A stretch of DNA of 63,369 nucleotides, the filler included, from Rhabdomonas costata (lineage: Eukaryota): assembly GCA_019059605.1 (NCBI GenBank). It is 54 parts of 54 records of this genome, joined end to end, with 100 filler letters (N's around TTAATTAATTAA, not from the genome) between each part and the next. Parts side by side here need not be neighbours in the genome. Positions count along the whole stretch, not along the records: positions 56,419 to 57,494 come from JAHMHO010029920.1; 53 more parts are not named here. One strand, given 5' to 3'. Below the pieces are notes generated by a model. It worked only from the letters and a program-made list of their open reading frames with translations, searched no databases and was not told the origin of the DNA. The number at the start of each line of letters is the position of its first letter. Position 1 is the first letter of the stretch. This document shows positions 4,587 through 58,959 of this stretch, piece by piece. The position numbers and the translations under genes were made by a program.

Positions 4587-4782
4587 NNNNNNNNNNNNNN
4601 NNNNNNNNNNNNNNNNNNNNNNNNNNNNNNTTAATTAATTAANNNNNNNNNNNNNNNNNNNNNNNNNNNNNNNNNNNNNNNNNNNNTTAAAGGTTTGAAT
4701 TGTTTGTGTCTACGAACCCAGCTTTGAGCTTGTCTTTTATTAAAGTAATCTTTTGATAGAATTAGAGATTGAATATGTGTTG

Positions 4783-5200
4783 TCATATACCATTACTACA
4801 TAAATTTAATTAATCTGCAAGTCTCATAATAGAATCAGGTATGTTATCATAGATTTCTCTCATAACGATAAAAACATCAATATTTTTTTTCATGTTTAAG
4901 AAATGTTAACAATTTTATTATGTCATCGTATAATTCTCTCTTGATGTTTAGAAAAAAGAAAATTTCAAAGACAATACATCTTCTCTTACATCTTGAATTC
5001 TCATGAAATGAGTTGTCTAAGTACATGAAATGTGGTAACTTTAATAAAATACTATCACAACAATTTATATATTCAGTATACTTGTTCTCAGCGTCTGCTA
5101 AATAGACAACATAAACAAAATCATATACATGTGTTAATAAATGTAGTTTAATGTATCTTGTCTTCCCTGATCTTTTCTTTCAAACCAACATATAGAACAT
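4783..5200 (-). pseudogene. Decayed P-loop ATPase, A32/FtsK-HerA viral packaging ATPase-like
   Basis: MFYMLV*KKRSGKT (Walker A with Gly codon changed to TGA at 5182-5180), Walker B-like RCIVFE, C-terminal KHEK/NIDVFIVMREIYDNIPDSIMRLAD*; one frameshift in an A8 run; AT-rich and intronless. Confidence 0.6.
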
Positions 5201-5262
5201 TACTATATATTAGTATAATAATTGTTGATATAAAATATAATATAGTATTATATTACTATAAC

Positions 5263-5588
5263 ATGGATAAAACAACACTAAAACAAGAATTGAATGAATA
5301 CGAAAAGGTCAGGTTAAGACTAAAGATTATGTGGGAGGGAGGACTTAGGGGCTATATTGATTATGGTATTGCTTCATGTTTAAGAGAAAAGTTCAGAAAA
5401 GAATTGATGAAATAGATGATCCATACGATAAAAAGTCAGCGAAGAAGATAGCTGAATTGAAGAAAAAGATTGAAACATTTTTAGATGGTAACATTGATTC
5501 TATGAATATGGATAGTATAGACACAAAGAAGTACGATGAAATGGGAATAGATCTTAATGACTATAATTACATCCTGAATATAGAATGA
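5263..5588 (+). pseudogene. AT-rich virus-like hypothetical gene with a frameshift
   Basis: MDKTTLKQELNEYEKV... continues in another frame as RIDEIDDPYDKKSAKKIAELKKK...; divergent from the ATPase across a short AT-rich spacer. Confidence 0.5.
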
Positions 5589-7552
5589 AAAGAAATTTAA
5601 TATATTTTTTATGTATTCATTTCTCTAAATAATCGTACTAACTTTTTCACCGTGTAAATGAAATGAGATTAGAAACGCAAGGCTTCTTTGTCCACAATCT
5701 TTTTCAGCGAATGACTCATCACGGTTGGTGTTAGCATTAATGAATTTTTTCTTTGCAAAGAAANNNNNNNNNNNNNNNNNNNNNNNNNNNNNNNNNNNNN
5801 NNNNNNNTTAATTAATTAANNNNNNNNNNNNNNNNNNNNNNNNNNNNNNNNNNNNNNNNNNNNTGAAAAAATTACTGGTTAGACCTTGTTGGAAACCGGT
5901 TGCACGAGGGCGGGACGACGCCAGCGCCGCCTACGAATCGACAAATGTTTTGCCGATTTTGACTCCTCCAACCCTCCAACAGCTTCAAAGCCTTGCAAAG
6001 CACACCAGTAAGCCAAACCACCGAAAATGTCCAAAGGCCCGAGGAAAGCGTCGCTTCAGTGTTTCCAGCACAGTGCACCTGAGCACCGAACCACCCATAC
6101 ACCCACAGACATTCTTCCAACTGTCACCGGACCCTTTCCCTATGTGGGCTTGACAAAACGTGATGTAGAGGGAGACCGACCGTGCACAAGGGCAGAACAC
6201 AGCGAGACGCCGCTCCCTTCTCCATCTGCCCACCGCACACCCAAAACCTCAGGTCATGAGTTCATGTGGTAATGAGTGGCCGACCGCTACCACAGCTGCG
6301 GACCCATTACGATGACAGGCACGGCAGGGCGCGATAGCGTCAGACAGAAAGAGAGCAGACAGAAAGAGAGACCAGGTGCGAGTGAGAAGCGCCTGTTGGA
6401 AAGGGCGTGCTGGATGACCAAGGTGCACTGTTCGGAAGGGACAAACTGTACACAGCGCAGGACATTCACAAAGCGCACACAGCGCACACGCACCTACAGC
6501 CCCCCCCTCAACACACACAGGCGGTTGACAAATTACATCGAACACTCTGAGCCCAAGCACCGCGCGGACTAGCTCACGGCACACGCCTCGGGAACGCTCA
6601 CGCAATTAATGGGCACAGCAACCACAGTCCTCTCCACACACGATCCATTCAAACAAAACAAAACAAACAACCCTCGGAACACCCCGCTCCTCAGCATCCA
6701 CCACATGTTCCAGAGAGGAACATTTCTGCGGATGCAAAAAAGAAAGGAAGGGCAGGGCAGGGAGGGTGCGGTGAACATGAACATGGAATGGATCCTCCAA
6801 ATTGCAAAGGGAGGTGGAAAGCACTTTTCTCGAGTGACGAGTAGAAGAATAGAAGGGGGGGCAGTAGTAGAGAGGAGGGTAAAAAAAGAGGTTTAGAAAG
6901 AGAGGGCACTATACAACACGATCCATTCAAACAAACCAACNNNNNNNNNNNNNNNNNNNNNNNNNNNNNNNNNNNNNNNNNNNNTTAATTAATTAANNNN
7001 NNNNNNNNNNNNNNNNNNNNNNNNNNNNNNNNNNNNNNNNGGACTACCGAGTCGGGCTGTGGCTGTTCGGGGCCCATGACCGTATGCCCTGTGTCTGGGG
7101 ATGGGGGGTGCTTGAGCCGTTCTGATGCTGTTGTCTTTCAGATGTGGGGAGGATGGAGTTGCGTCCGGAAGCAATCCTCGTAGTCAGTTAACAAGCTCGC
7201 CCCTTCGGCGCGAAAAGCTCCTCTCTCTCTCTCTCTCTCTCTCGAATATGGGCACATAACATCGCGGGCCAAATACACTGACTCAAGCAGATCGCGGTTT
7301 TTTTACGTGCATCTGTGATTGTTGGGGGGGGGGTCATCCTGCACCGCTGTTGTGCTGTGGTAAACGGGTGTATGCCTCTGGTGGTTTCATGGGTGGGACG
7401 TCTTACTTGGTTCCACTGGCCCGTTTGCACTGTCCTCTGGGATGGATTTTCGTTTAATTTTATGACAGTGGCTGTTTCTCGTGCCATGGAGGAAGAAGGT
7501 GAGCAACGACTCTGTGGATTTGTTCTGTGTGGTCTCTGCGAGGAGGGGGGAG

Positions 7553-8855: not shown

Positions 8856-9809
8856 CTCCTCTAATGGTGGGAAGATGAGGTTTGTGGTGGTGGGCGCGTG
8901 CTCCTGCTGTGGTCCATCCTGGTCGCTGCTCTATTTGAGGAAACGTGGAAGTGGAGTTTGTTAGAGTTATTTATTACCTGTCTCGTATGATTGTCTGTTG
9001 ATGTGTGACCATCTCTTGGCTGCATCTGAAATTATGTGCGCTACCATCGAGCTCATGGTAACTGCGTTTAAATTAATTTAAAATTAAATTAAAATAAAAA
9101 ATTAAATTGAAAGTGTTTGAAAATGCTTCACGTAAGCTCCATGCATGCTATGAGGGAGCTGCAATGAAGTCACCAACTCTGCTTTGCCGCTGACCTAGTT
9201 TGCACCATTGGGCTTAACATCGTGCTAAGTTTCGTTCATTTTATACGCATCCAAGCCTTACACTGTAGTGTACCGTTTTCTTTCCCAACAACCNNNNNNN
9301 NNNNNNNNNNNNNNNNNNNNNNNNNNNNNNNNNNNNNTTAATTAATTAANNNNNNNNNNNNNNNNNNNNNNNNNNNNNNNNNNNNNNNNNNNNTGTTTTT
9401 GGTCAACAATCGCTGAGAACTGGTGGTGAAGTGCCCCAGTGGGATCTGTGTAATCTGTTGCCCTCGCCCCTAGCATCCTGCCCATGTATACAGCGGGCAC
9501 AAAGTCTAGTGTGAATGGCGCGAGATGGCACCATTAGGCATTTTCGGCAACTCCGTTAAAAGGTTTTAGCCCTGGGGGTAAAAGGGAACGGCTGGCAAAA
9601 GGCCCCGCCAATCGCTGTCGCCTGAAGTTGCCTGAAGTGGAAAATCTGGAGTGTGATGAGCCGGACAGATCACTTTTTGGAAGGCAGGCGAGAGTTCGCT
9701 GAAGTCGCTTTCAGCGCACAGCTGGACTGCAGTGATGTGGCCTTTCAACCACATAGGCCAGGGTTGCAACGAGTACCATACTCCTTTCTGCGTTATTTCT
9801 TTCACCCAG

Positions 9810-10204
9810 GGCGCATGCACTCCAAGGGAAAGGGTATCAGCGAGAGCTGCTTGCCCTACAGACGCGAGGCTCCGGCTTGGCTCAAGACCTCCGCCCGGGA
9901 AGTCGTGGATATGGTGTGCAAGTTGGCGAAGAAGGGCATGCCGCCATCGCAGATCGGAGTGGTGCTGCGAGATAGCCACGGGATTGGGCAGTGCCAGGCC
10001 GTGACTGGTGCGTGACTTGTCCTGCTTGTCCTGAGCAATGGTATCTCACACTTACGTCCCATTCCCTTTTGTTTTGCTGATGCAGGGCGGAAGATTCTTC
10101 GCATTCTTAAGCACAAGGGGCTCGTTCCTGAGATTCCTGAAGACCTCTATTGCCTCATTAAGACCGCGGTGACCTGCCGCAAGCATCTGGAGAAGAACCG
10201 CAAG
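9810..10204 (+). CDS. RPS13: 40S ribosomal protein S13 (uS15), exons 9810-10007 and 10086-10204
   Basis: [19 protein letters not shown]...[13 protein letters not shown]...[31 protein letters not shown]; 78-nt GT-AG intron. Confidence 0.98.
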
Positions 10205-18310: not shown

Positions 18311-19206
18311 GAATAATATGAGTCTTCCATTTAAGCGAGATGATCCCATTTGAGACAATTGAGCTGGACCCCGTTGGCCAGCTGCCCCCGCATGAGCAGG
18401 CCGATGACCCCTTTCTTCAAGCGCACTGACTTTTCCACTGGGATATTCCAATGCCCCTGTTTACCAACAGCAATTAGTGGACAATGACTTCCAACCTCAC
18501 AATGCGCCTGCTTAACGGTATGTGGACCAGGAAAGAAACCAGAAATGTGACCTCAATGCCGTTCATAATCACCCATTTGTCGTATGTTAATTTCAGTGTG
18601 TCCACACTGAGAGGATCAGGAAGCAATCGAAACTTCCCCACAACGTTGTTCAATTCAATCCGAAGGTAATTGTGCTTCGTCTCCCACCCCACANNNNNNN
18701 NNNNNNNNNNNNNNNNNNNNNNNNNNNNNNNNNNNNNTTAATTAATTAANNNNNNNNNNNNNNNNNNNNNNNNNNNNNNNNNNNNNNNNNNNNAGTTTTA
18801 TTATCGTGAGTTTTATTGTATAAAACATTTTGTATAGTAAATTATATTAATGTCAATTAATTTTGATTCTTTGTTCAGTACAAACAAAATTAAATAAAAA
18901 ACCAGAAACCAGGAAAAAAAAACTATCCATTAATGCTATTAAACTGATACAAACTAAGTATGGAAAGATCATATTGTGTGTACTTATGATTGTTACTCAA
19001 TATTTTGCTTATCAAATTAAAATAGATTTCTGCATGAAAAAGAAAGTAAAAGTTTTGATGATAAAATGAATGAATGATAATTTTTATTGTAACAATTATT
19101 CATTATTGACCAGAAAACCAAGTTCAGCTATTTTTTGTTTGTCTCTATCAATACACTCATTTAATTTAATTACCTTTTCCTTTAGATTTATTAATGCTAA
19201 ATCAAT

Positions 19207-19449
19207 TTAACTAAATTCGATTTTAAGTGAACTCATTGTTAGTTGTCTTTTGTAATGATCAATTATGTAAGTAGCTGCATCATATGTACTTGCGAAGTGC
19301 TGGTTAAATACTTCTCTATGCATTTCATAACACTCATCTTTCATCATTTCAAGTTCAGCAATCGCAAATTTCACTTTACCGATTTCTTCTTCATTGCCTT
19401 TGATGCTTTCTTCAAGTTCATTTATTTTTTCTAAATTCACAGAATCCAT
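19207..19449 (-). CDS. AT-rich virus-like coiled-coil ORF, probably nonsense-truncated
   Basis: MDSVNLEKINELEESIKG...EFS*; frame continues past TAA as IDLALINLKEKVIKLNECIDRDKQKIAEL; start context TATAATG. Confidence 0.6.
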   Translation of the reverse strand: MDSVNLEKINELEESIKGNEEEIGKVKFAIAELEMMKDECYEMHREVFNQHFASTYDAATYIIDHYKRQLTMSSLKIEFS

Positions 19450-19523
19450 TTATACTTATATGTAATAAATTATTTCTTAAGTAATTTTAAAATAATAATA
19501 AAATCTATATTATTTAAAAACAA

Positions 19524-19730
19524 TTAAGATACTACATAAAATTCAAAGCACATAATTGAATTTTGAGCACATTCATATTTCATTTGAAAATAACCATTAT
19601 TTGCAAAAGTAGAACCATGAGAGTTTAATATTTCAAATGTTTGTGTTTCATCATCATATCCAGTAATTACCACTGCATGCCCTCCGAGCATCTCGTCGTC
19701 TGGAAGTGGTAAACTTAATAAGGTAAGTAA
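19524..19730 (-). pseudogene. Papain-like (C1) cysteine protease, C-terminal fragment
   Basis: GGHAVVITGYDD...FEILNSHGSTFANNGYF with catalytic His and Asn; Cys-bearing half replaced by GC-balanced DNA at ~19731. Confidence 0.88.
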
Positions 19731-20045
19731 CACCCGGAAACTCAGAAAATGGTATGTGAAGGTTTTCCACTCGAAGTCTTTTTAGCCTATATACATGCCG
19801 CGGTCCGGTGACGTGGCATGTGGTTAACCCGAAATGTTTTCTGGGGCGCGAGCTGAAAAATCAACACACNNNNNNNNNNNNNNNNNNNNNNNNNNNNNNN
19901 NNNNNNNNNNNNNTTAATTAATTAANNNNNNNNNNNNNNNNNNNNNNNNNNNNNNNNNNNNNNNNNNNNTGTTTTGTGGTATACGCGAGCACTGCAGTTG
20001 GCGATGACGATCTTTTTGTTGTTGACTTGCGGTTGTTGGTGGCAG

Positions 20046-22321: not shown

Positions 22322-22679
22322 TTTCTTTAAATGTTACTTGATTTATCTCTCGTGATGGTGATAATGTTTGATCTGCTTGTTGGCTTTCAACTTGTTTCTG
22401 TATTTGCACTGATTCTTTAGAGAATTTCTTATACAATCTTGACTTTTTACTATTATAAACTTTAAATGCTTTCGCTAAAGAGCTTAGATTTGCTTTTTTT
22501 GAATTAATATTTTCATATGTTTTATTTATAAAATTGTATATCCTTTTGTGATTTTTTAAAATCCATTTAAAGTTATTTTTGTGATATGTAATTGTCAATC
22601 TGCGAGCCCATAACTTAAATCTGGATATATCATTAATATTAAACGTATCCATATAATAAACATGATATAATTTTTGCAT
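22322..22679 (-). CDS. N-terminal part of a putative virophage/PLV-type (OLV11-like) tyrosine recombinase
   Basis: WILKNHKRIYNFINKTYENINSKKANLSSLAKAF...YKKFSKES...QTLSPSREINQVTFKE resembles the recalled pre-catalytic region of PLV/virophage YRs; catalytic residues lie off-contig. Confidence 0.55.
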
Positions 22680-22752
22680 ATCATGAATACATTACACATT
22701 TTCACAGGAAAAATATATATTTTCTAAAAATAAAAATATATAGTATTTTTAT

Positions 22753-23079
22753 ATGGAAAAAATTACACCTCAAAATTATGTCTTTAAGCTTGGTAAATAC
22801 AAAAACATGAAAGGAGTTGACGTTGCAAGATTAAAGACAGTAGATAAAAACGGTAAAGAGAGAGCAACAGGTAGATCTTATTTAGAATGGATTGTTAATC
22901 AAGATTGGTTTCATCATAAAGACATAATACAGAAAATTATTGATGCTGTAAAGGAAGAAGATCCAGACACAGAAGAGGAAATAGAAGAGAAACCTAAAAT
23001 AGAAAAGAAGAAGAAAAAAGAAGTAAAAACAGTAAAAATTAGTGCAGCAGATCAGGATAAAACAATACATTTTCAGTGA
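22753..23079 (+). CDS. Virus-like small protein with a FKLGKYKN...YLEW motif (DUF3820-like) and charged tail
   Basis: Intact intronless AT-rich ORF of 108 aa. Confidence 0.75.
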   Translation: MEKITPQNYVFKLGKYKNMKGVDVARLKTVDKNGKERATGRSYLEWIVNQDWFHHKDIIQKIIDAVKEEDPDTEEEIEEKPKIEKKKKKEVKTVKISAADQDKTIHFQ

Positions 23080-23108
23080 AAAATAAATTGTTAGTTAAAT
23101 AATATATA

Positions 23109-23354
23109 ATGGATCAGAATAATAAGAAGAAAAGAAAATACAGTGATATTGTTAGTCAATTACATGCTATTGATTTAAACATCAAACCAGTTGATTATCT
23201 ACCATGTGTAATATGCAAAAATAGAGTCTATGAATATAGAATGTTTGAGAACAAAGATTTTGTTACATGCTGTTATGACTGCTTATCATTATTAGCACTA
23301 TCAAAAAAAGAAGGACTATTACATGAAAGAAAAGATAAAACATCTTTTGAATAA
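23109..23354 (+). CDS. Virus-like small zinc-finger protein
   Basis: CVIC...CCYDC; ATATATAATG start context; 29 bp from the previous ORF. Confidence 0.7.
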   Translation: MDQNNKKKRKYSDIVSQLHAIDLNIKPVDYLPCVICKNRVYEYRMFENKDFVTCCYDCLSLLALSKKEGLLHERKDKTSFE

Positions 23355-23384
23355 TTAAAAGTTGTTCAAACAACTTTTAATTAT
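23351..23384 (+). terminator. Perfect AT-rich hairpin overlapping the stop codon (putative viral 3'-end signal)
   Basis: ATAATTAAAAGTTGTT-CA-AACAACTTTTAATTAT, 16-bp perfect arms. Confidence 0.6.
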
Positions 23385-24901
23385 GATACAGTATAAANNN
23401 NNNNNNNNNNNNNNNNNNNNNNNNNNNNNNNNNNNNNNNNNTTAATTAATTAANNNNNNNNNNNNNNNNNNNNNNNNNNNNNNNNNNNNNNNNNNNNGTG
23501 TGGAGACCTGCTAAGTGAATAATGCGCCAAAGGCGCGGCTTTTTTGTGGGGGTTGATTCCGCTTTTGTGGTGGATTTTGAAGCGAATTGTGAAGCTCTGT
23601 GGAATGATACTTGAGGAGTGGGGTGTATAGAGTTCGTGTTTGAATCTGTGGCTATCAGGAAGGTGATGACTGAGTTTACGGGGTAACGGACTTTATTTGG
23701 AAAGCCACAGGGGCACACGCGACACACACACCTGGCGCAACATTTCTGGCGACGGGCAAGTTGCGGAGGGAACGCCGTAACTCTTGTACAGCCTTTTTCT
23801 CGTATTTCTACTCGTTTGTTTCCGCACCTTTTTGTCTCGTTATTGCCTCCCAGCGGCCTTCAAGCCCCACTTTCTGGAGGGAACAGCGCTCATCACGCAT
23901 GACTTCCGTTCGGCCAGCCGAGACCTTTTGTGAATCCCCTGTGCAGCCCTTATGGTGGCCAGGGACCCACTACGTTTCTACGTTCCCGTTAATAACGTCC
24001 TGCCAGGGTATCAAGATCAACCGCGCCAGTGGCTCCGGGTGGGGTTTTTAACTTGACTCAGGCACTGATGGAATGAGCGCCTTTAAGTGAAATAAATGTG
24101 TGGAGTGCTTGGTTCTGCCGCAGCCTTTTTTGGGAAAGAATGAACGAAATTTGCGAAGGGGACAGACATAGTGTCATTAGCGGTGGCCAGGACAAGGTCA
24201 CTTATTATCAAACCAACCTCAAACAACATTAAAACCAGGAGCATGCACGAAGGTGGATGCAAGTGCACCAGAAGGTTCAGAAATACTCCACGTAACAACA
24301 ATGATGTACAAGCACACCCCCAGGACCTGATCTCCTAGAATGTGGGTTCTCATGGCTGCGCTGGTGGACTGAGCAGCATAACGTCAGGCAAGGAAAGAGA
24401 TTGAGTGCCCACCAGCGGGGAGTTCAACGAGCGAGGCGACTGAGGCCCGACCTCATTCGTAACATACGTCAGGGTGACCTTATCAGGAGCTTTTGGAAAG
24501 TTGCACTCCCCGCTGGTGGGCACTCAGTCTCTTTCCATGCCTGACGTTATGCTGCTCAGTCCACCAAACCCCCNNNNNNNNNNNNNNNNNNNNNNNNNNN
24601 NNNNNNNNNNNNNNNNNTTAATTAATTAANNNNNNNNNNNNNNNNNNNNNNNNNNNNNNNNNNNNNNNNNNNNTAACGTTCACTTCCCAGGTCAGCGCGA
24701 CCAAAAGCCGGTCCGAGAATGAGCTTCTCTTGGATTCGGAGTTGTGCAGAAAATGCGATAACCCCAACTGCTTCGATCGATCGAGAGAGTGAGAGCGCGC
24801 GTCGGCAGAGAGATATCCGCGGGAAAAAATGGCACTGCCTCAACCCAAACCATGCCCCACAAAACAAACGAAGCACAAAAAAGAAAATGCACGGAATCCC
24901 A

Positions 24902-41240: not shown

Positions 41241-41973
41241 GAGAGAGAAATGAAGGAGAAGGGCGACGAAAGTGAGCTGCACCTGATCATTTTCGACGAG
41301 ATTGACGCCATCTGCAAGTCCCGTGGCAGCACCCGGTGCGGAATATGCATGCCTGGGCACTTTGCTAAAAGATGGTTGAAGGTTTTTTCCTGCCTACCTG
41401 CCGACCTGCCGCTTTCCCTGCATGAGAAGAATTCAGTGGGTTGATCTCGGTTTAATATCGGTGTTGCAGTTGATGAAGCCGCAGTGTTAGCGGTTCTGAG
41501 CTTCGAGTTCAAACACAAAATTACATAGTGCCTTTTCCTACCTTTGTATTGCTCTCACTTTGGAGCTTAGCGCCCGTAACGCGCATGCCATGCCTATAGG
41601 GATGGCACAGGAGTCTCGGACAGTGTGGTGAATCAGCTTCTGTCCAAGATCGACGGAGTGGAGGCCTTGAACAACGTGCTGCTGATTGGGATGACCAACC
41701 GCAAGGACCTCCTGGACGAGGCCCTGCTGAGGCCGGGCCGCTTCGAGGTTCTGATCGAGATTGGTCTTCCGGACGAGGAGGTTTGTGTTTGCGTGCTGTG
41801 GGTGAGTGTTTTTTCATATGTGACTGTGATGTTATGCCTTTCCTTGGCGCGCTGTGATCCTATGAACACTGATATTCGTCAGGTCAAGGATCAGGATTAT
41901 GTCTTTTCTCTTTGCTTTTTACTTTCACTCTTTGACACTGCTTGGCTGGTTTCAGGGCAGGCTGCAGATCTTC
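41241..41973 (+). CDS. NSF: N-ethylmaleimide-sensitive factor (Sec18) D1 AAA domain, exons 41241-41335, 41600-41780, 41956-(chimeric)
   Basis: [72 protein letters not shown]...PDEE|GRLQIF. Confidence 0.96.
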
Positions 41974-42467
41974 CAGATCGACGTCGGGCTCCAGGTGACC
42001 TGTTTCGCGGATCTTCATTGTGTGAATCTTGAAGATCTGCAGCCTGCCCTGAAACCAGCCAAGCAGTGTCAAAGAGTGAAAGAAAAAAGTGTGTGAGTCA
42101 CTGGAAAAAATAGGGAAGTCAGCGAAAGTAAAAAGCAAAGAGAAAAGACATAATCCTGATCCTTGACCTGACGAATATCAGTGTTCATAGGATCACAGCG
42201 CGCCAAACAAANNNNNNNNNNNNNNNNNNNNNNNNNNNNNNNNNNNNNNNNNNNNTTAATTAATTAANNNNNNNNNNNNNNNNNNNNNNNNNNNNNNNNN
42301 NNNNNNNNNNNTTTTCATGAGAGTTTGCAGTCGACAAGACACAGTTCATACATGCAGTGCGCGATTTCTCTTGCTATATATGGGCATCTGAAAACTCTCA
42401 TGAAAACCATCACACGTAGGGCGCTGTCCTGGGAGCGGCTTTGATGCAGGGAAAAAAAATCAGGGAA

Positions 42468-53920: not shown

Positions 53921-54215
53921 CTGTTAAACATAAACCCACGAACAAGGAATTTTTCCAAAAAACAAANNNNNNNNNNNNNNNNNNNNNNNNNNNNNNNNNN
54001 NNNNNNNNNNTTAATTAATTAANNNNNNNNNNNNNNNNNNNNNNNNNNNNNNNNNNNNNNNNNNNNTTGTTTTTGCGTTGATTGGGGCATATTTAGGCCA
54101 ATTTAGGGATGCTACACCCCCGTGGTGTGGTATTTTGGTATTCGGCACTTTTTCGAAAAATCGCGTTTTTTTCGGTCATTTTGGGCTCCAGGGCCGTTTA
54201 TATGGGAAAACGTCC

Positions 54216-54593
54216 ATTTTCTCCAGGAGGCTTTTTTTTGAATTAATTTGTCTTGAGTTTGTCTTTTGTGATGATTACGAATGCAATTTTAAAAAAGATA
54301 ACATTATCACGTGAGACATTTTGTAACGTGATAAAAGTTTATTTTTCTCCAGGAGCCATGTTTTTGGCTTAATTTTGTGTATGTGTTCTGCTTTTTGGAA
54401 CAGTTGTAACAGTTTTTGTTGAAGATATTCCAACGTAAATGCCTCAGAATAGTTTTTGTGGTTTCTCGACTTCTCGTTGTACTCTCAGTATGGGACAAAA
54501 TATGACGCTTTCAAAAAAGTGAAAATTTCCTATACAAAGCTGCGGGACCTTTGCATGTAAAATCGTAAATTTTCTCCAGGAGCCATGTTTTTT
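54216..54593 (+). repeat. Three dispersed direct repeats TTTCTCCAGGAG(CCATGTTTTT) in AT-rich non-coding DNA
   Basis: Copies at ~54216, ~54341 and ~54569. Confidence 0.7.
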
Positions 54594-56418
54594 CCAATTT
54601 TTCTTGACCTTAATCGGATGAAAAGAAATTGTTTGTTAATCTGTGTAACTTATTTTGCTACATAAATGCCAAAAATCATCATTTTATGTGTGAAGTCCAG
54701 TTGTAAAACCCAGAACGTTGGAGTAAAAGTGGTACTTTTAAAAAAGCAAAAACTTCCCCATGCAAAGTCAACCGGGTCACACAGTCCACAGAAAAATTTT
54801 AAAGCTTCCATCATGGTTTACTCAGTAGGATCCAGTTTCTTCTGTAATGAAATGATTTTAAAATGGAACTTTGTCTCACGCTGTGCAACTTTTAGTACGG
54901 ATGCGAGTTTTTGTGCAGAACTTTCCAGGTTTCTTCGTGACATTTTTCTCTATCATTATGTGCATTCAGCTGCACTGCAACTGCGCAATCCGTCGACCAA
55001 GGGCAAAATGGGACATATCTCGAGATAGACTGCGTATTTTTTGAATCTGATTGCATATATTGGTAGGTTTTTGGGTACGGGGAATCGTTTAAAACAAAAA
55101 TGGAGCTTCAACTCGGTCTCTAGATATGTTTTTGCTCGAAAANNNNNNNNNNNNNNNNNNNNNNNNNNNNNNNNNNNNNNNNNNNNTTAATTAATTAANN
55201 NNNNNNNNNNNNNNNNNNNNNNNNNNNNNNNNNNNNNNNNNNGTGGGGGGGGGGACACGTTGCACACGCCGCGAACACGTCACAGGCAAGGAAATGACGA
55301 GGAAGAGGCGCACTGCACACTGGTCCGAGGGGGAAGGGTATTCATGACTACCACTTCTCCACCTGAGTGCTCGCAGCTGTTGTTGCACCTCTGTCTGTGC
55401 CTTGAACGGTGGGGCGAGCTCGAAAAAGCCCTGAAATAATGGCCCATTTGGGCCGGTGTTGGGAATGGTCAACTCAAACAACACAAACGCAAACACAAAC
55501 ACAAACCAGTCTGAAAGTCACACAAAATAAAGGAGGAGCAAGCCTGACGCCTTCTAGATCCCGAAAAAGCACTTTGAAGGGGATACTTAATCGTACGAGC
55601 ACAACTGATGGCACATATATTCGGAGAATTCCTCGAGACCCTCACTCAATCACTCCAAGAACGACAACGAGCTCCAAGAGCAGGCCAGTCCTGATGCTGA
55701 GAGTTGCGCAGAAGGCAGGCCTTGCCATTTTTGCAAGCAGCATTAAAACGTGACGTTTAAAAGAAGACTAAACCACAAAACAATAAATGGAGGGCTGGGG
55801 ATGGGACAGGATTGCGCAGGAAGAGGGATGCACAAAGTCGTCTGCCGCAACCCACACCGCAGCAGACAAAGAATGGCAATAGCTGTCACCACCAAAAAGA
55901 AGCCCCAACACTCATTACAGGAGGCCTGCTCGGTAATGGAGGAGGACGCCATGCGGCACTGGCACTAGCACTCGAAGCGAGAGCAGAGAAGCCCTGAATG
56001 CACTGGGCTAAGCGTGCACAGCTTTTCACCGACAGAGATCGACAGCTGGCCTCTCAACCCGAGCTGTCAGTCCGAGAAAGCAAAAGAGAGAAAAAGGAGG
56101 GATTGCAGAGACGGCAGCATTGTGGGGTATCAGTGCAGGTGCGAACACAGTGCTGGAGCACCAATAAAAACGGGGAGCGAGCAAACAGTAAGCGAAAAGA
56201 GAAGAAACCGGGGGGGGGGGATTCTAGAAGTCATTTCCAGTGCCACTGATGACCTCTTGGACATCGACCAATAACGATGAAGGATCGAGAACACAAAAAC
56301 CAAACACAACACACAAAANNNNNNNNNNNNNNNNNNNNNNNNNNNNNNNNNNNNNNNNNNNNTTAATTAATTAANNNNNNNNNNNNNNNNNNNNNNNNNN
56401 NNNNNNNNNNNNNNNNNN

Positions 56419-57156
56419 TAATTGTCGATCAGTTGGCGAAGTAATGTTTACATCAGACAATGAAACACGTAATAATCCAGGAGAATTTACCCATTTATTT
56501 GCTGTAGAATCATAAGTAAGTAGCTGATCACCTGTTGGTGTTGATAAAGCAAAATCTGATAAAAATGATGTATCTAGATTTTTCCAAATTGCAGAAGTAG
56601 GTCCAGTTGCAGTTAGTAATTGGCCACTAATTGGTGCTGAAGCAGATGATACATCAACTTTTGTTGTTGCAGATAATAATGAATTAGCCATGATATTATT
56701 AGATGGATCAACCAAAGTTTTATTTATTAAAGTTTGTGTCGCTGTATCACCAACAATGACACAAGAGGCATCAGGAACAGTTAATATTCTTGTTTCTCCA
56801 CTTGTAATTTCTGATAATGACAATTGTACTTTCTTTGTTTTATCAGTATTATTTACAAGAGTAAATACAGTATCAAATAAGGTACTTGAATTGATCCATT
56901 GATTAGATGCTGAATCATAAATAAGTAATTGATTATCTGATACGGACGTGATATTCACGTCTGATAATGATACACTTAATAAACCAGTTGTATTTTTCCA
57001 TTTATTCGTTACATTATCATAAACAAGTAATTGATGATCTGATGGAGACGTGATATTCACGTCTCCTAAAGAAGCACTTAACAATCCAAATGTATTGATC
57101 CATTTATTAGATACAGAATCAAAAATAAGTAATTGATGGTTCATTGGCGATGTAAT
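56419..57156 (-). CDS. Viral fibre/tail-fibre-like repeat protein, 5'-interrupted fragment
   Basis: Repeats of SLSDVNITSPxDxQLLxYDxxxxKWxN plus a TKKVQLSLSEITSGETRILTVPDA...TQTLINKTL motif; AT-rich, intronless; begins mid-repeat. Confidence 0.8.
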
Positions 57157-57315
57157 TATAATTATTATTAATTAACTTTTTATTAATAAGACTATCTCGA
57201 TCAAAATCAATGATAGGTTGATAAATTCATTTTCCTATAACAAATTTTAATAAATCTTCTTTCAGACCAAAGTTGACTAAGATATAAGATTACTAAGTTT
57301 TTAATTAGTACGAGA

Positions 57316-57494
57316 TATATTTACATAAACACACAAAAAAGTAACGAGAACTTAATAAAGGAAATAAAAAACACATACAAAGTAAGAGAAAATGAAAAAT
57401 TGACCATAATGTATGGAGATTGGTCTTCAAAAAATCAAATGAAGAATATGATATCAACACCAAATAAAAAAATAAAAAGATTATTAGGTAAACA
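57316..57494 (+). mobile_element. Fanzor1 (eukaryotic/viral TnpB-like nuclease) gene fragment, bridge helix to RuvC-II region
   Basis: YIYINTQKSNENLIKEIKNTYK...LTIMYGDWSSKNQMKNMISTPNKKIKRLLGK matches the recalled viral Fanzor1 pattern YINxQxS...GDWS..QM....STP...KR.L; N-terminus missing (TGA at 57274). Confidence 0.8.
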
Positions 57495-58959
57495 NNNNNN
57501 NNNNNNNNNNNNNNNNNNNNNNNNNNNNNNNNNNNNNNTTAATTAATTAANNNNNNNNNNNNNNNNNNNNNNNNNNNNNNNNNNNNNNNNNNNNGTGTGT
57601 TCACATCCGCATTCACGCAATGAGACCTCAGTTTCCGCGAGCAGAGTATGGTTGTTCTGGAATTCCCTCCACTCCATAAGCTGCACTCGGCTGAGCAGTG
57701 GAATACTCTCCTCAGCCGAGTGCAGCTTATGGAGTGGAGGGAATTCCAGAACAACCATACTCTGCTCGCGGAAACTGAGGTCTCATTGCGTGAATGCGGA
57801 TGTGCACACGCCTGCTCTTTCGGAACATGTTGCTGTCAACACACTTTTAAGAGTTTAAGAGAGTGTATGAGTGAGGATGCACAGGGCCGAAAATTGGTCC
57901 TGGCGAGGGGGGGGGCAAGGTGTTGCTGGAAAGATACTTTCCGGTTTGATCGGGCAAAAAGTGCAAAAAGTGGGCTGAGAGTGAAATCACACGAATTTAG
58001 TTTTCGGAAGAGTTTCTGTTTTTTTCCGCGTGTGGGTGTTGATGGCATCGATGTGGAAAAGACAGGGTCGGCCTGAAAAGTTGCCCTACCTCCGCCCCAC
58101 CAGATTCCCACATCTGCAACACCTTGTGGTGGGTATCACCTTACAACCCCCTGCAGATTCTTCCTTGGAATCCATTGGAACCGCTTCGATTGCAATATAT
58201 AAGTGAACCTGGCTTTGATGTTTCAGTTGGCCCACCCCTTGGATGATGCGTGTGCATTGGTAGGCCTGTGCGTTCGTGGTTGCGTGCGATGGTGGGGGGA
58301 CTGCGGTTCCAGGATTTCGTGAGGAATGCCACGGCCAACCTCATGGCCACCCAGATAGAGTCAGGAAACCCCCCGCTGGCCAAAGTCGGGAGCTTGCGGC
58401 TGCACGGAGGTTGGCGAACCCCCCCCCTAACAGAAAGAGATAAACGAATGCTGATGTGCCCTCGATTTCTCAGGCTCCTTCTCTTCTTCGCAATGTCGCA
58501 ATGTGAGCTCTCCCAGAAATGAAAGGCGCACGCAGAGACCCAAGAGAGAGAGAGAGAGCCCACGTCCATCTTGGCCTAGCCGCGTTCCTTCCACCATGTC
58601 AGGCCTTTGCGTTTGTCTCCAGCATTCGTATGATTTGACTTGGATCCGTAAAAAAAATTGCTCACCCACNNNNNNNNNNNNNNNNNNNNNNNNNNNNNNN
58701 NNNNNNNNNNNNNTTAATTAATTAANNNNNNNNNNNNNNNNNNNNNNNNNNNNNNNNNNNNNNNNNNNNCTTCGATTACCTCTTCTGGGAGGTAGTTTCT
58801 GTGCACATGTTGTGAGAGAAGGTTACGATGAATATCGATTGCAGCAAGCAACTGAATAAGGTGGGTGGCAGGAAGAATACCTGGTACAACCTGGGTGGAT
58901 TAGCTGATGCTGGTGCGCGTTGCACGCTGTATTGTGCTGATTCTGTCTTGGGGGAATAG

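Follow-up and report, generated by a model that had tools for sequence, protein, structure and literature searches.

TnpB proteins (IS200/IS605, IS607) and the Fanzor2 proteins of mimiviruses belong to the same superfamily of RuvC-fold RNA-guided nucleases as the Fanzor1 proteins (accessible portions of PMC10432273 and bioRxiv 10.1101/2023.08.09.552727). According to the accessible portion of the latter paper, the Fanzor signature consists of a DPG motif and a RuvC-II glutamate that is shifted C-terminally to a position near the Zn finger. Fanzor1 proteins are reported from giant viruses in the available text of PMC10432273, and the viral enrichment stressed in the available text of PMC10530073 is that of Fanzor2. 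Structures have been solved for the Fanzor1 proteins SpuFz1 (8GKH, Spizellomyces punctatus), PpFz1 (9CF0, Parasitella parasitica) and GtFz1 (9CER, Guillardia theta), which are products of fungal or algal nuclear genes. Here, we describe a fragment of a Fanzor1 gene, the relatives of which are, in contrast, virus-borne, AT-rich and intron-less. Compared with the solved proteins, it has only 71 codons and lacks RuvC-I, and the remaining motifs would lie beyond the end of its contig.

The window analyzed here is a stretch of 63,369 bases, in which 54 contigs (1055-1077 bp each) have been chained in the order of their size. All 54 contigs are separated by linkers of the structure N44-TTAATTAATTAA-N44, which constitute six-frame stop spacers. 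The linker that follows the contig under study (57495..57594, with the Ns beginning at 57495) is an artificial contig boundary and not sequence. Since the window is a concatenation of small contigs, physical linkage to the Fanzor1 fragment is limited to 56419-57494 and the adjacency of contigs is uninformative. The fragment is located wholly on contig 56419-57494, which is unplaced and comprises 1076 bp with a GC content of 28.4%. GC contents below 30% were found for four of the 54 contigs (4687-5763, 18794-19869, 22322-23397 and 56419-57494), while most of the others range between 43% and 58% and contig 54067-55142 has 37%. The contig to the right opens with a 102-nt inverted repeat (57597-57809), the arms of which are 98% complementary and 9 nt apart. 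This fold-back resembles an artefact of assembly or library preparation, or else a hairpin element.

A preliminary description of this DNA had reported a Fanzor1 peptide at 57316-57494, an upstream closure of its frame at TGA 57274 and coverage of the G-D position of RuvC-II. The peptide as quoted there matches exactly frame +0 of the contig (59 amino acids, 57316-57492), and the frame remains open to the contig end at 57494. The closing TGA (57274..57276, plus strand) is also present, and further to the left the same frame contains TAA 57238, TAG 57214 and TGA 57211. No Fanzor homology was detected to the left of this TGA in any frame, and the 72 codons to its right are free of stops despite the 28% GC of the DNA. 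An alternative genetic code was considered for the upstream stops and rejected, because TGA, TAG, TAA and TGA follow each other at 57211-57276 and all three stop codons thus occur within 30 codons.

When the 59-residue peptide was compared in a word-indexed search with 5.8 billion proteins, a protein of 1010 amino acids (P0001) was the sole match among 52 candidates (E 8.6e-5). It is 51% identical to the peptide and covers all of its 59 residues. Comparison of the 72-residue translation with the best 150 relatives of P0001 yielded 147 HSPs at E<=1, and the top BLASTP relative (P0046) shared 54% identity (E 4.4e-15); no relative closer than this was found. A profile of the RuvC region built from 134 relatives matched the fragment with 62.5 bits (E 9.4e-21), and this was its sole match in the six frames of the window. 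With a full-length profile built from 38 relatives (A1), we obtained 76.3 bits (E 4.6e-25) for profile positions 525-591 of 748, which correspond to 57280-57492. The Fanzor homology therefore starts 36 bases to the left of 57316, directly after the TGA, and the gene fragment extends over 71 codons (57280..57492, plus strand, open to the contig end).

The fragment corresponds approximately to residues 730-797 of P0001, that is, to the stretch between the helix preceding RuvC-II and the S-T-P-N...K-R-L-L segment. It includes the codons GGA GAT TGG TCT (57415-57426), which encode G-D-W-S, and the G-D-W codons (57415..57423) align with G772, D773 and W774 of P0001. The non-catalytic form of the ancestral RuvC-II position is thus present, and it is at this position that TnpB carries a Glu. 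In the A1 alignment, G772 is invariant and D773 and W774 are conserved to at least 90%; in the A2 alignment, the corresponding G47, D48 and W49 are all invariant. A comparison with A1 carried out by hand indicated that nine of ten invariant or near-invariant columns are kept in the fragment (Y732, F737, N747, G772, D773, W774, T786, P787 and K792), the exception being R738. The claim of a Fanzor1-type fragment that covers the G-D-W position was thus borne out, both by the two profiles and by the fact that the family profile matches the solved Fanzor1 proteins.

In a search of the protein data bank, the A1 profile matched PpFz1 (9.8e-70), SpuFz1 (8.8e-65) and GtFz1 (2.2e-49) over REC and RuvC. 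Among real proteins, these three were the only ones matched, and no TnpB or Fanzor2 chain was returned at E<=0.01. P0001 itself matched SpuFz1 (E 3.4e-12) and PpFz1 (E 5e-12), and for the peptide alone SpuFz1 ranked first, although weakly (E 0.12). The fragment aligns to residues 871-909 of SpuFz1, over an F-I-N-x-Q...G-D-W-S stretch that reads F-I-N-R-Q at its beginning in SpuFz1 itself. Since neither P0001 nor the peptide, which by itself is too short for such curated libraries, was assigned to a family by Pfam, NCBIfam or PHROGs, the family assignment is based on the structurally characterized chains and on the profiles built here. A precomputed table lists PF26935 for P0001, but our Pfam search of this protein did not return it. 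When the 38 relatives of the A1 alignment were compared with Pfam, none of them matched OrfB_IS605 or OrfB_Zn_ribbon at E<=0.01. As judged from sequence comparison, the fragment is a genuine piece of a Fanzor1 gene, and statistically this assignment is solid.

The family to which the fragment belongs is large. An exhaustive phmmer search with P0001 returned 2058 cluster representatives at E<=1e-3 and 313 at E<=1e-30. The conserved signature of the A1 alignment consists of D648-P649-G650-K (RuvC-I), G772-D-W, D805-E806-x-x-T809-S810 and R863-D864 (P0001 numbering), and D648, G772, E806, T809 and R863 are invariant. SpuFz1, PpFz1 and GtFz1 share this DPG, GDW, DExxTS and RD signature with the relatives of the fragment. 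It agrees with the motif pattern in the accessible portion of 10.1101/2023.08.09.552727 and with what the preliminary description had stated about Fanzor1 motifs. The occurrence of Fanzor1 in large DNA viruses, which had also been stated there, is in line with the giant-virus reports in the available text of PMC10432273.

Searching IMG/VR with the A1 alignment as query, we obtained 291 pattern matches, of which 156 loci were confirmed and 80 were kept for further analysis (L005-L084); when either the peptide or P0001 served as the sole query, nothing was returned. Many of the confirmed loci are located on contigs labelled as GVMAG, which are up to 415 kb long, and several bins are multi-copy, such as one GVMAG with four Fanzor1 loci. 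When the peptide was searched by tblastn, it matched 77 of the 80 kept loci. The giant-virus proteins (L005-L084; P0001, P0034-P0182) are 38-54% identical to the fragment over its length, their base composition is alike (17-40% GC in the 80 loci), and the fragment keeps the invariant residues of their family. Thus, it belongs, as far as its residues indicate, to an already known and common virus-borne Fanzor1 family. The earlier suggestion of a candidate new OMEGA system is not supported, since this family is already large and virus-borne.

The virus-borne relatives also provide information on the size of the gene unit. Of the 80 loci, 73 contain an ORF of 566 or more amino acids without interruption; in four of the seven loci with shorter ORFs, no more than about 130 nt separate the beginning of the reading frame from that of the locus. 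For 818 of 933 pairs with less than 95% identity, the start of nucleotide similarity fell into the interval from -100 to +75 relative to the ATG. Of 571 pairs with less than 97% identity, 508 showed similarity that stopped 50-200 nt behind the stop codon. Within L005-L084 these ends cluster by sub-family at about +60, +100 and +150 past the stop. These positions indicate that the virus-borne Fanzor1 relatives form compact units with a conserved 3' tail, in the place where an omegaRNA scaffold would be expected. With their sharp flank ends, these 80 loci would be well suited for delimiting elements and their omegaRNAs.

Compared with these complete ORFs of 630-750 amino acids with conserved short flanks, the copy on our contig lacks the first 524 of the 748 profile positions, and the 5' two-thirds of the gene are absent. 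When 57101-57494 was translated in all six frames and stop codons were replaced by X, no match to profile positions 1-524 was obtained, and the positions around the RuvC-I DPG motif with the catalytic Asp were missing from all six frames of the contig. A tblastn search with P0001 against the whole window returned only 57316-57492 and no other piece at E below 2. According to these results, the DNA of the contig contains neither the REC lobe nor the Asp of RuvC-I. A complete ORF with REC lobe and RuvC is not present either, the frame being closed at TGA 57274. At the other end, alignment with P0001 predicts the D-E-x-x-T-S motif about eight codons past the contig end at 57494, so that the shifted Glu, the Zn finger, the RuvC-III R-D-x-N motif and any omegaRNA would lie beyond it. 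With this set of residues, the fragment as seen could not be an active nuclease.

One way to account for the missing upstream part is that the Fanzor1 gene is spliced and that the fragment is one of its downstream exons. There are AG dinucleotides ahead of the start of homology (cttctttcag at 57256-57265, ctaag at 57277-57281), and high intron density in many eukaryotic Fanzors is mentioned in the available text of PMC10530073. However, the intron would have to hold the antisense fibre-like gene described below, no upstream exon is found in the 860 bases upstream on the contig, and the 73 virus-borne relatives with one uninterrupted ORF argue against splicing in this family. We consider an exon highly improbable.

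To the left of the fragment, the minus strand carries a fibre-like repeat protein gene (56419..57156), which was recognized by its internal repeats and by its repeat-protein homologues and which is cut by the contig end at 56419. Its repeats are units of 34 amino acids (102 nt) at 56824, 56926 and 57028, with a further one at 56419, and they were the only matches when the contig was compared by blastn with the whole window. The only ATG of this ORF (57144) is located within a repeat unit, where ITSP-M-NHQLL stands in place of ITSPSDHQLL and ITSVSDNQLL (start context ...ITSP-M-NHQLLIFD compared with the units ITSPSDHQLLVYD and ITSVSDNQLLIYD), and there is a stop codon nine codons upstream of it. 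Thus, the previous statement that the fibre gene starts in the middle of a repeat at about 57156 was accurate. Homologues of the protein open with 10-45 non-repeat residues followed by a complete unit, which suggests either that the authentic 5' end of this gene has been lost or that the gene relies on a makeshift start codon.

For the fibre-like protein, we found 32 long repeat-protein homologues (best E 3.6e-48), none of which is informatively named, and a cluster look-up gave no informative names either. Among the PHROGs, it matched family 692 (virion structural protein, 4.5e-7) and family 11660 (tail protein, 5.2e-4), and five better matches are of unknown function; the families matched are those of phages. 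No Pfam family was found above the cut-off and no relative in the PDB. Its neighbours in the Atlas are viral and labelled Uroviricota (tailed phages), but with a score of 0.91 they amount to no more than a weak lead. The flanks of the 80 Fanzor loci did not contain a match to the fibre gene, and a homologue sought in one Fanzor-bearing virus record was not found. Taken together, these similarities suggest a protein that is virus-like, but not specifically giant-virus-like.

The two genes are separated by an AT-rich spacer of about 120 bases (57157..57279) without detectable homology to either gene or to the element ends of the relatives; a palindromic TAATTATAATTAT run is located at 57153-57170. 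The preliminary description had interpreted 57157 as the junction and 57157-57315 as the left end of a Fanzor1 mobile element; this element would have entered the fibre gene of an endogenous virus and would subsequently have undergone an internal deletion. The geometry is compatible with this proposal, since the homology of the fibre repeats stops at about 57157 in the middle of a unit; the Fanzor gene points away from the fibre gene, and the relatives, which are short at their 5' ends, resemble mobile units of compact size. The same geometry would be explained equally well by one deletion or rearrangement that cut into both of the divergent genes, or by a chimeric contig. The left end itself could not be upheld, because Fanzor coding homology is already present from 57280 and 57157-57279 shares only AT-rich words of 12-17 nt with the relatives. 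Such words were all that a short-word search of 57145-57290 against the 5' and 3' flanks of the relatives returned. No shared word of 57157-57279 was located in the upstream-end zone of the relatives. As protein identity to these relatives does not exceed 54%, a diverged end could escape this search. A blastn comparison of the contig with 84 loci returned only the coding stretch 57395-57494 and one AT-rich match of 35 nt. In addition, two events (insertion and internal deletion) would be required, the contig lacks the 5' half of the fibre gene, which would have to lie past the contig end, and it contains no host junction that would indicate endogeny. On balance, such an insertion appears decidedly unlikely.

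The 71 codons of the fragment are well kept and show no decay, and this points to a recent truncation or, alternatively, to a mis-joined contig. In the latter case, a short-read assembly error in AT-rich sequence that is of low complexity or repeated would have placed a piece of an intact multi-copy Fanzor1 gene from elsewhere next to the fibre gene, and the adjacency of the two genes would be false. A chimera is plausible because of the AT palindrome and because both contig ends fall into repeated or multi-copy sequence, the fibre repeat at 56419 and the Fanzor gene at 57494. That the contig is an unplaced scrap of 1076 bp would fit such an origin, and so would the fold-back on the adjacent contig, which is of a type typical of artefacts. 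On the other hand, the Fanzor break at 57280 lies about 110 nt away from the palindrome, and a single mis-join there would leave the missing upstream coding sequence unexplained. We regard an assembly artefact as unlikely.

The most probable explanation, which we hold with good confidence, is a 5'-truncated and catalytically dead Fanzor1 remnant that lies beside a clipped fibre-like gene on a giant-virus-like contig. According to this explanation, contig 56419-57494 would be AT-rich, giant-virus-like DNA, either integrated or free, that was co-assembled with a eukaryote of about 52% GC, and it would carry the middle of a Fanzor1 gene from a family abundant in giant-virus metagenome bins. Intact relatives are RNA-guided RuvC nucleases of 630-750 amino acids with D(PG) at RuvC-I and R-D at RuvC-III. 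In these relatives, G-D-W is non-catalytic and the working Glu has moved to the D-E-x-x-T-S motif just before the Zn-finger region. Their gene resides in a compact unit, with the omegaRNA scaffold expected about 50-200 nt after the stop. One deletion or rearrangement may then have left the Fanzor1 remnant together with the clipped 5' end of its divergent fibre-like neighbour. Both this origin of the remnant and its giant-virus source are what we infer from the arrangement and composition of the contig. The GC content is consistent with a giant-virus setting (28% for the contig and 17-40% for the Fanzor loci, compared with 43-58% for the majority of the 54 contigs). As to the remnant, its good preservation fits a recent event, but it fits equally a mis-joined contig with a right part from an intact gene. 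Against a giant-virus source stand the phage-labelled neighbours of the fibre-like protein, the lack of a fibre match in the 80 loci and the lack of a giant-virus match on the other AT-rich contigs; the evidence that the contig is viral is circumstantial.

With 25-28% GC, the three other AT-rich contigs (4687-5763, 18794-19869 and 22322-23397) stand out from the contigs of about 52% GC around them, and they may share the virus-like source of 56419-57494. The ORF at 19527-19781 (minus strand) gave a sub-threshold match to a papain-family protease (E 6.5e-4, 20.3 bits compared with a cut-off of 20.7), and the other ORFs of these three contigs were without family and without a giant-virus match. 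When the ORFs 22744-23076 and 19527-19781 were scanned against IMG/VR, no close relatives were found, and an Atlas look-up of the former gave weak leads only. Pieces of eukaryotic genes were detected on host-side contigs. One, at 9626-10012 (plus strand), encodes a ribosomal uS15/S13 N-terminal domain (E 8.3e-30), and the other, at 41580-42029 (plus strand), an AAA ATPase (E 2.3e-11). Apart from these two, there were almost no Pfam matches among the 64 long ORFs of the window, and an Rfam search of the whole window at the gathering threshold yielded none.

More far-reaching is the idea that all four AT-rich contigs derive from a giant virus that is resident or integrated in the eukaryote, and that a Fanzor1 element, mobile now or until recently, landed in a virion fibre gene and broke it. 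We consider this combination a long shot. If true, this contig would document a natural case in which an OMEGA element disrupted a structural gene of a giant virus, and other parts of the assembly would contain intact Fanzor1 copies together with their omegaRNA. The fragment itself is of minor importance, being a dead-looking piece of 71 codons from a family that has been described, structurally solved and found abundant in giant-virus bins. Its value is that of a flag: the unplaced contigs of this eukaryote hold giant-virus-like DNA with Fanzor1, and intact copies might be present in the assembly. For the mining of giant-virus Fanzor1 systems, the compact units with sharply ending flanks seen in the virus-borne relatives may be of more use than the fragment.
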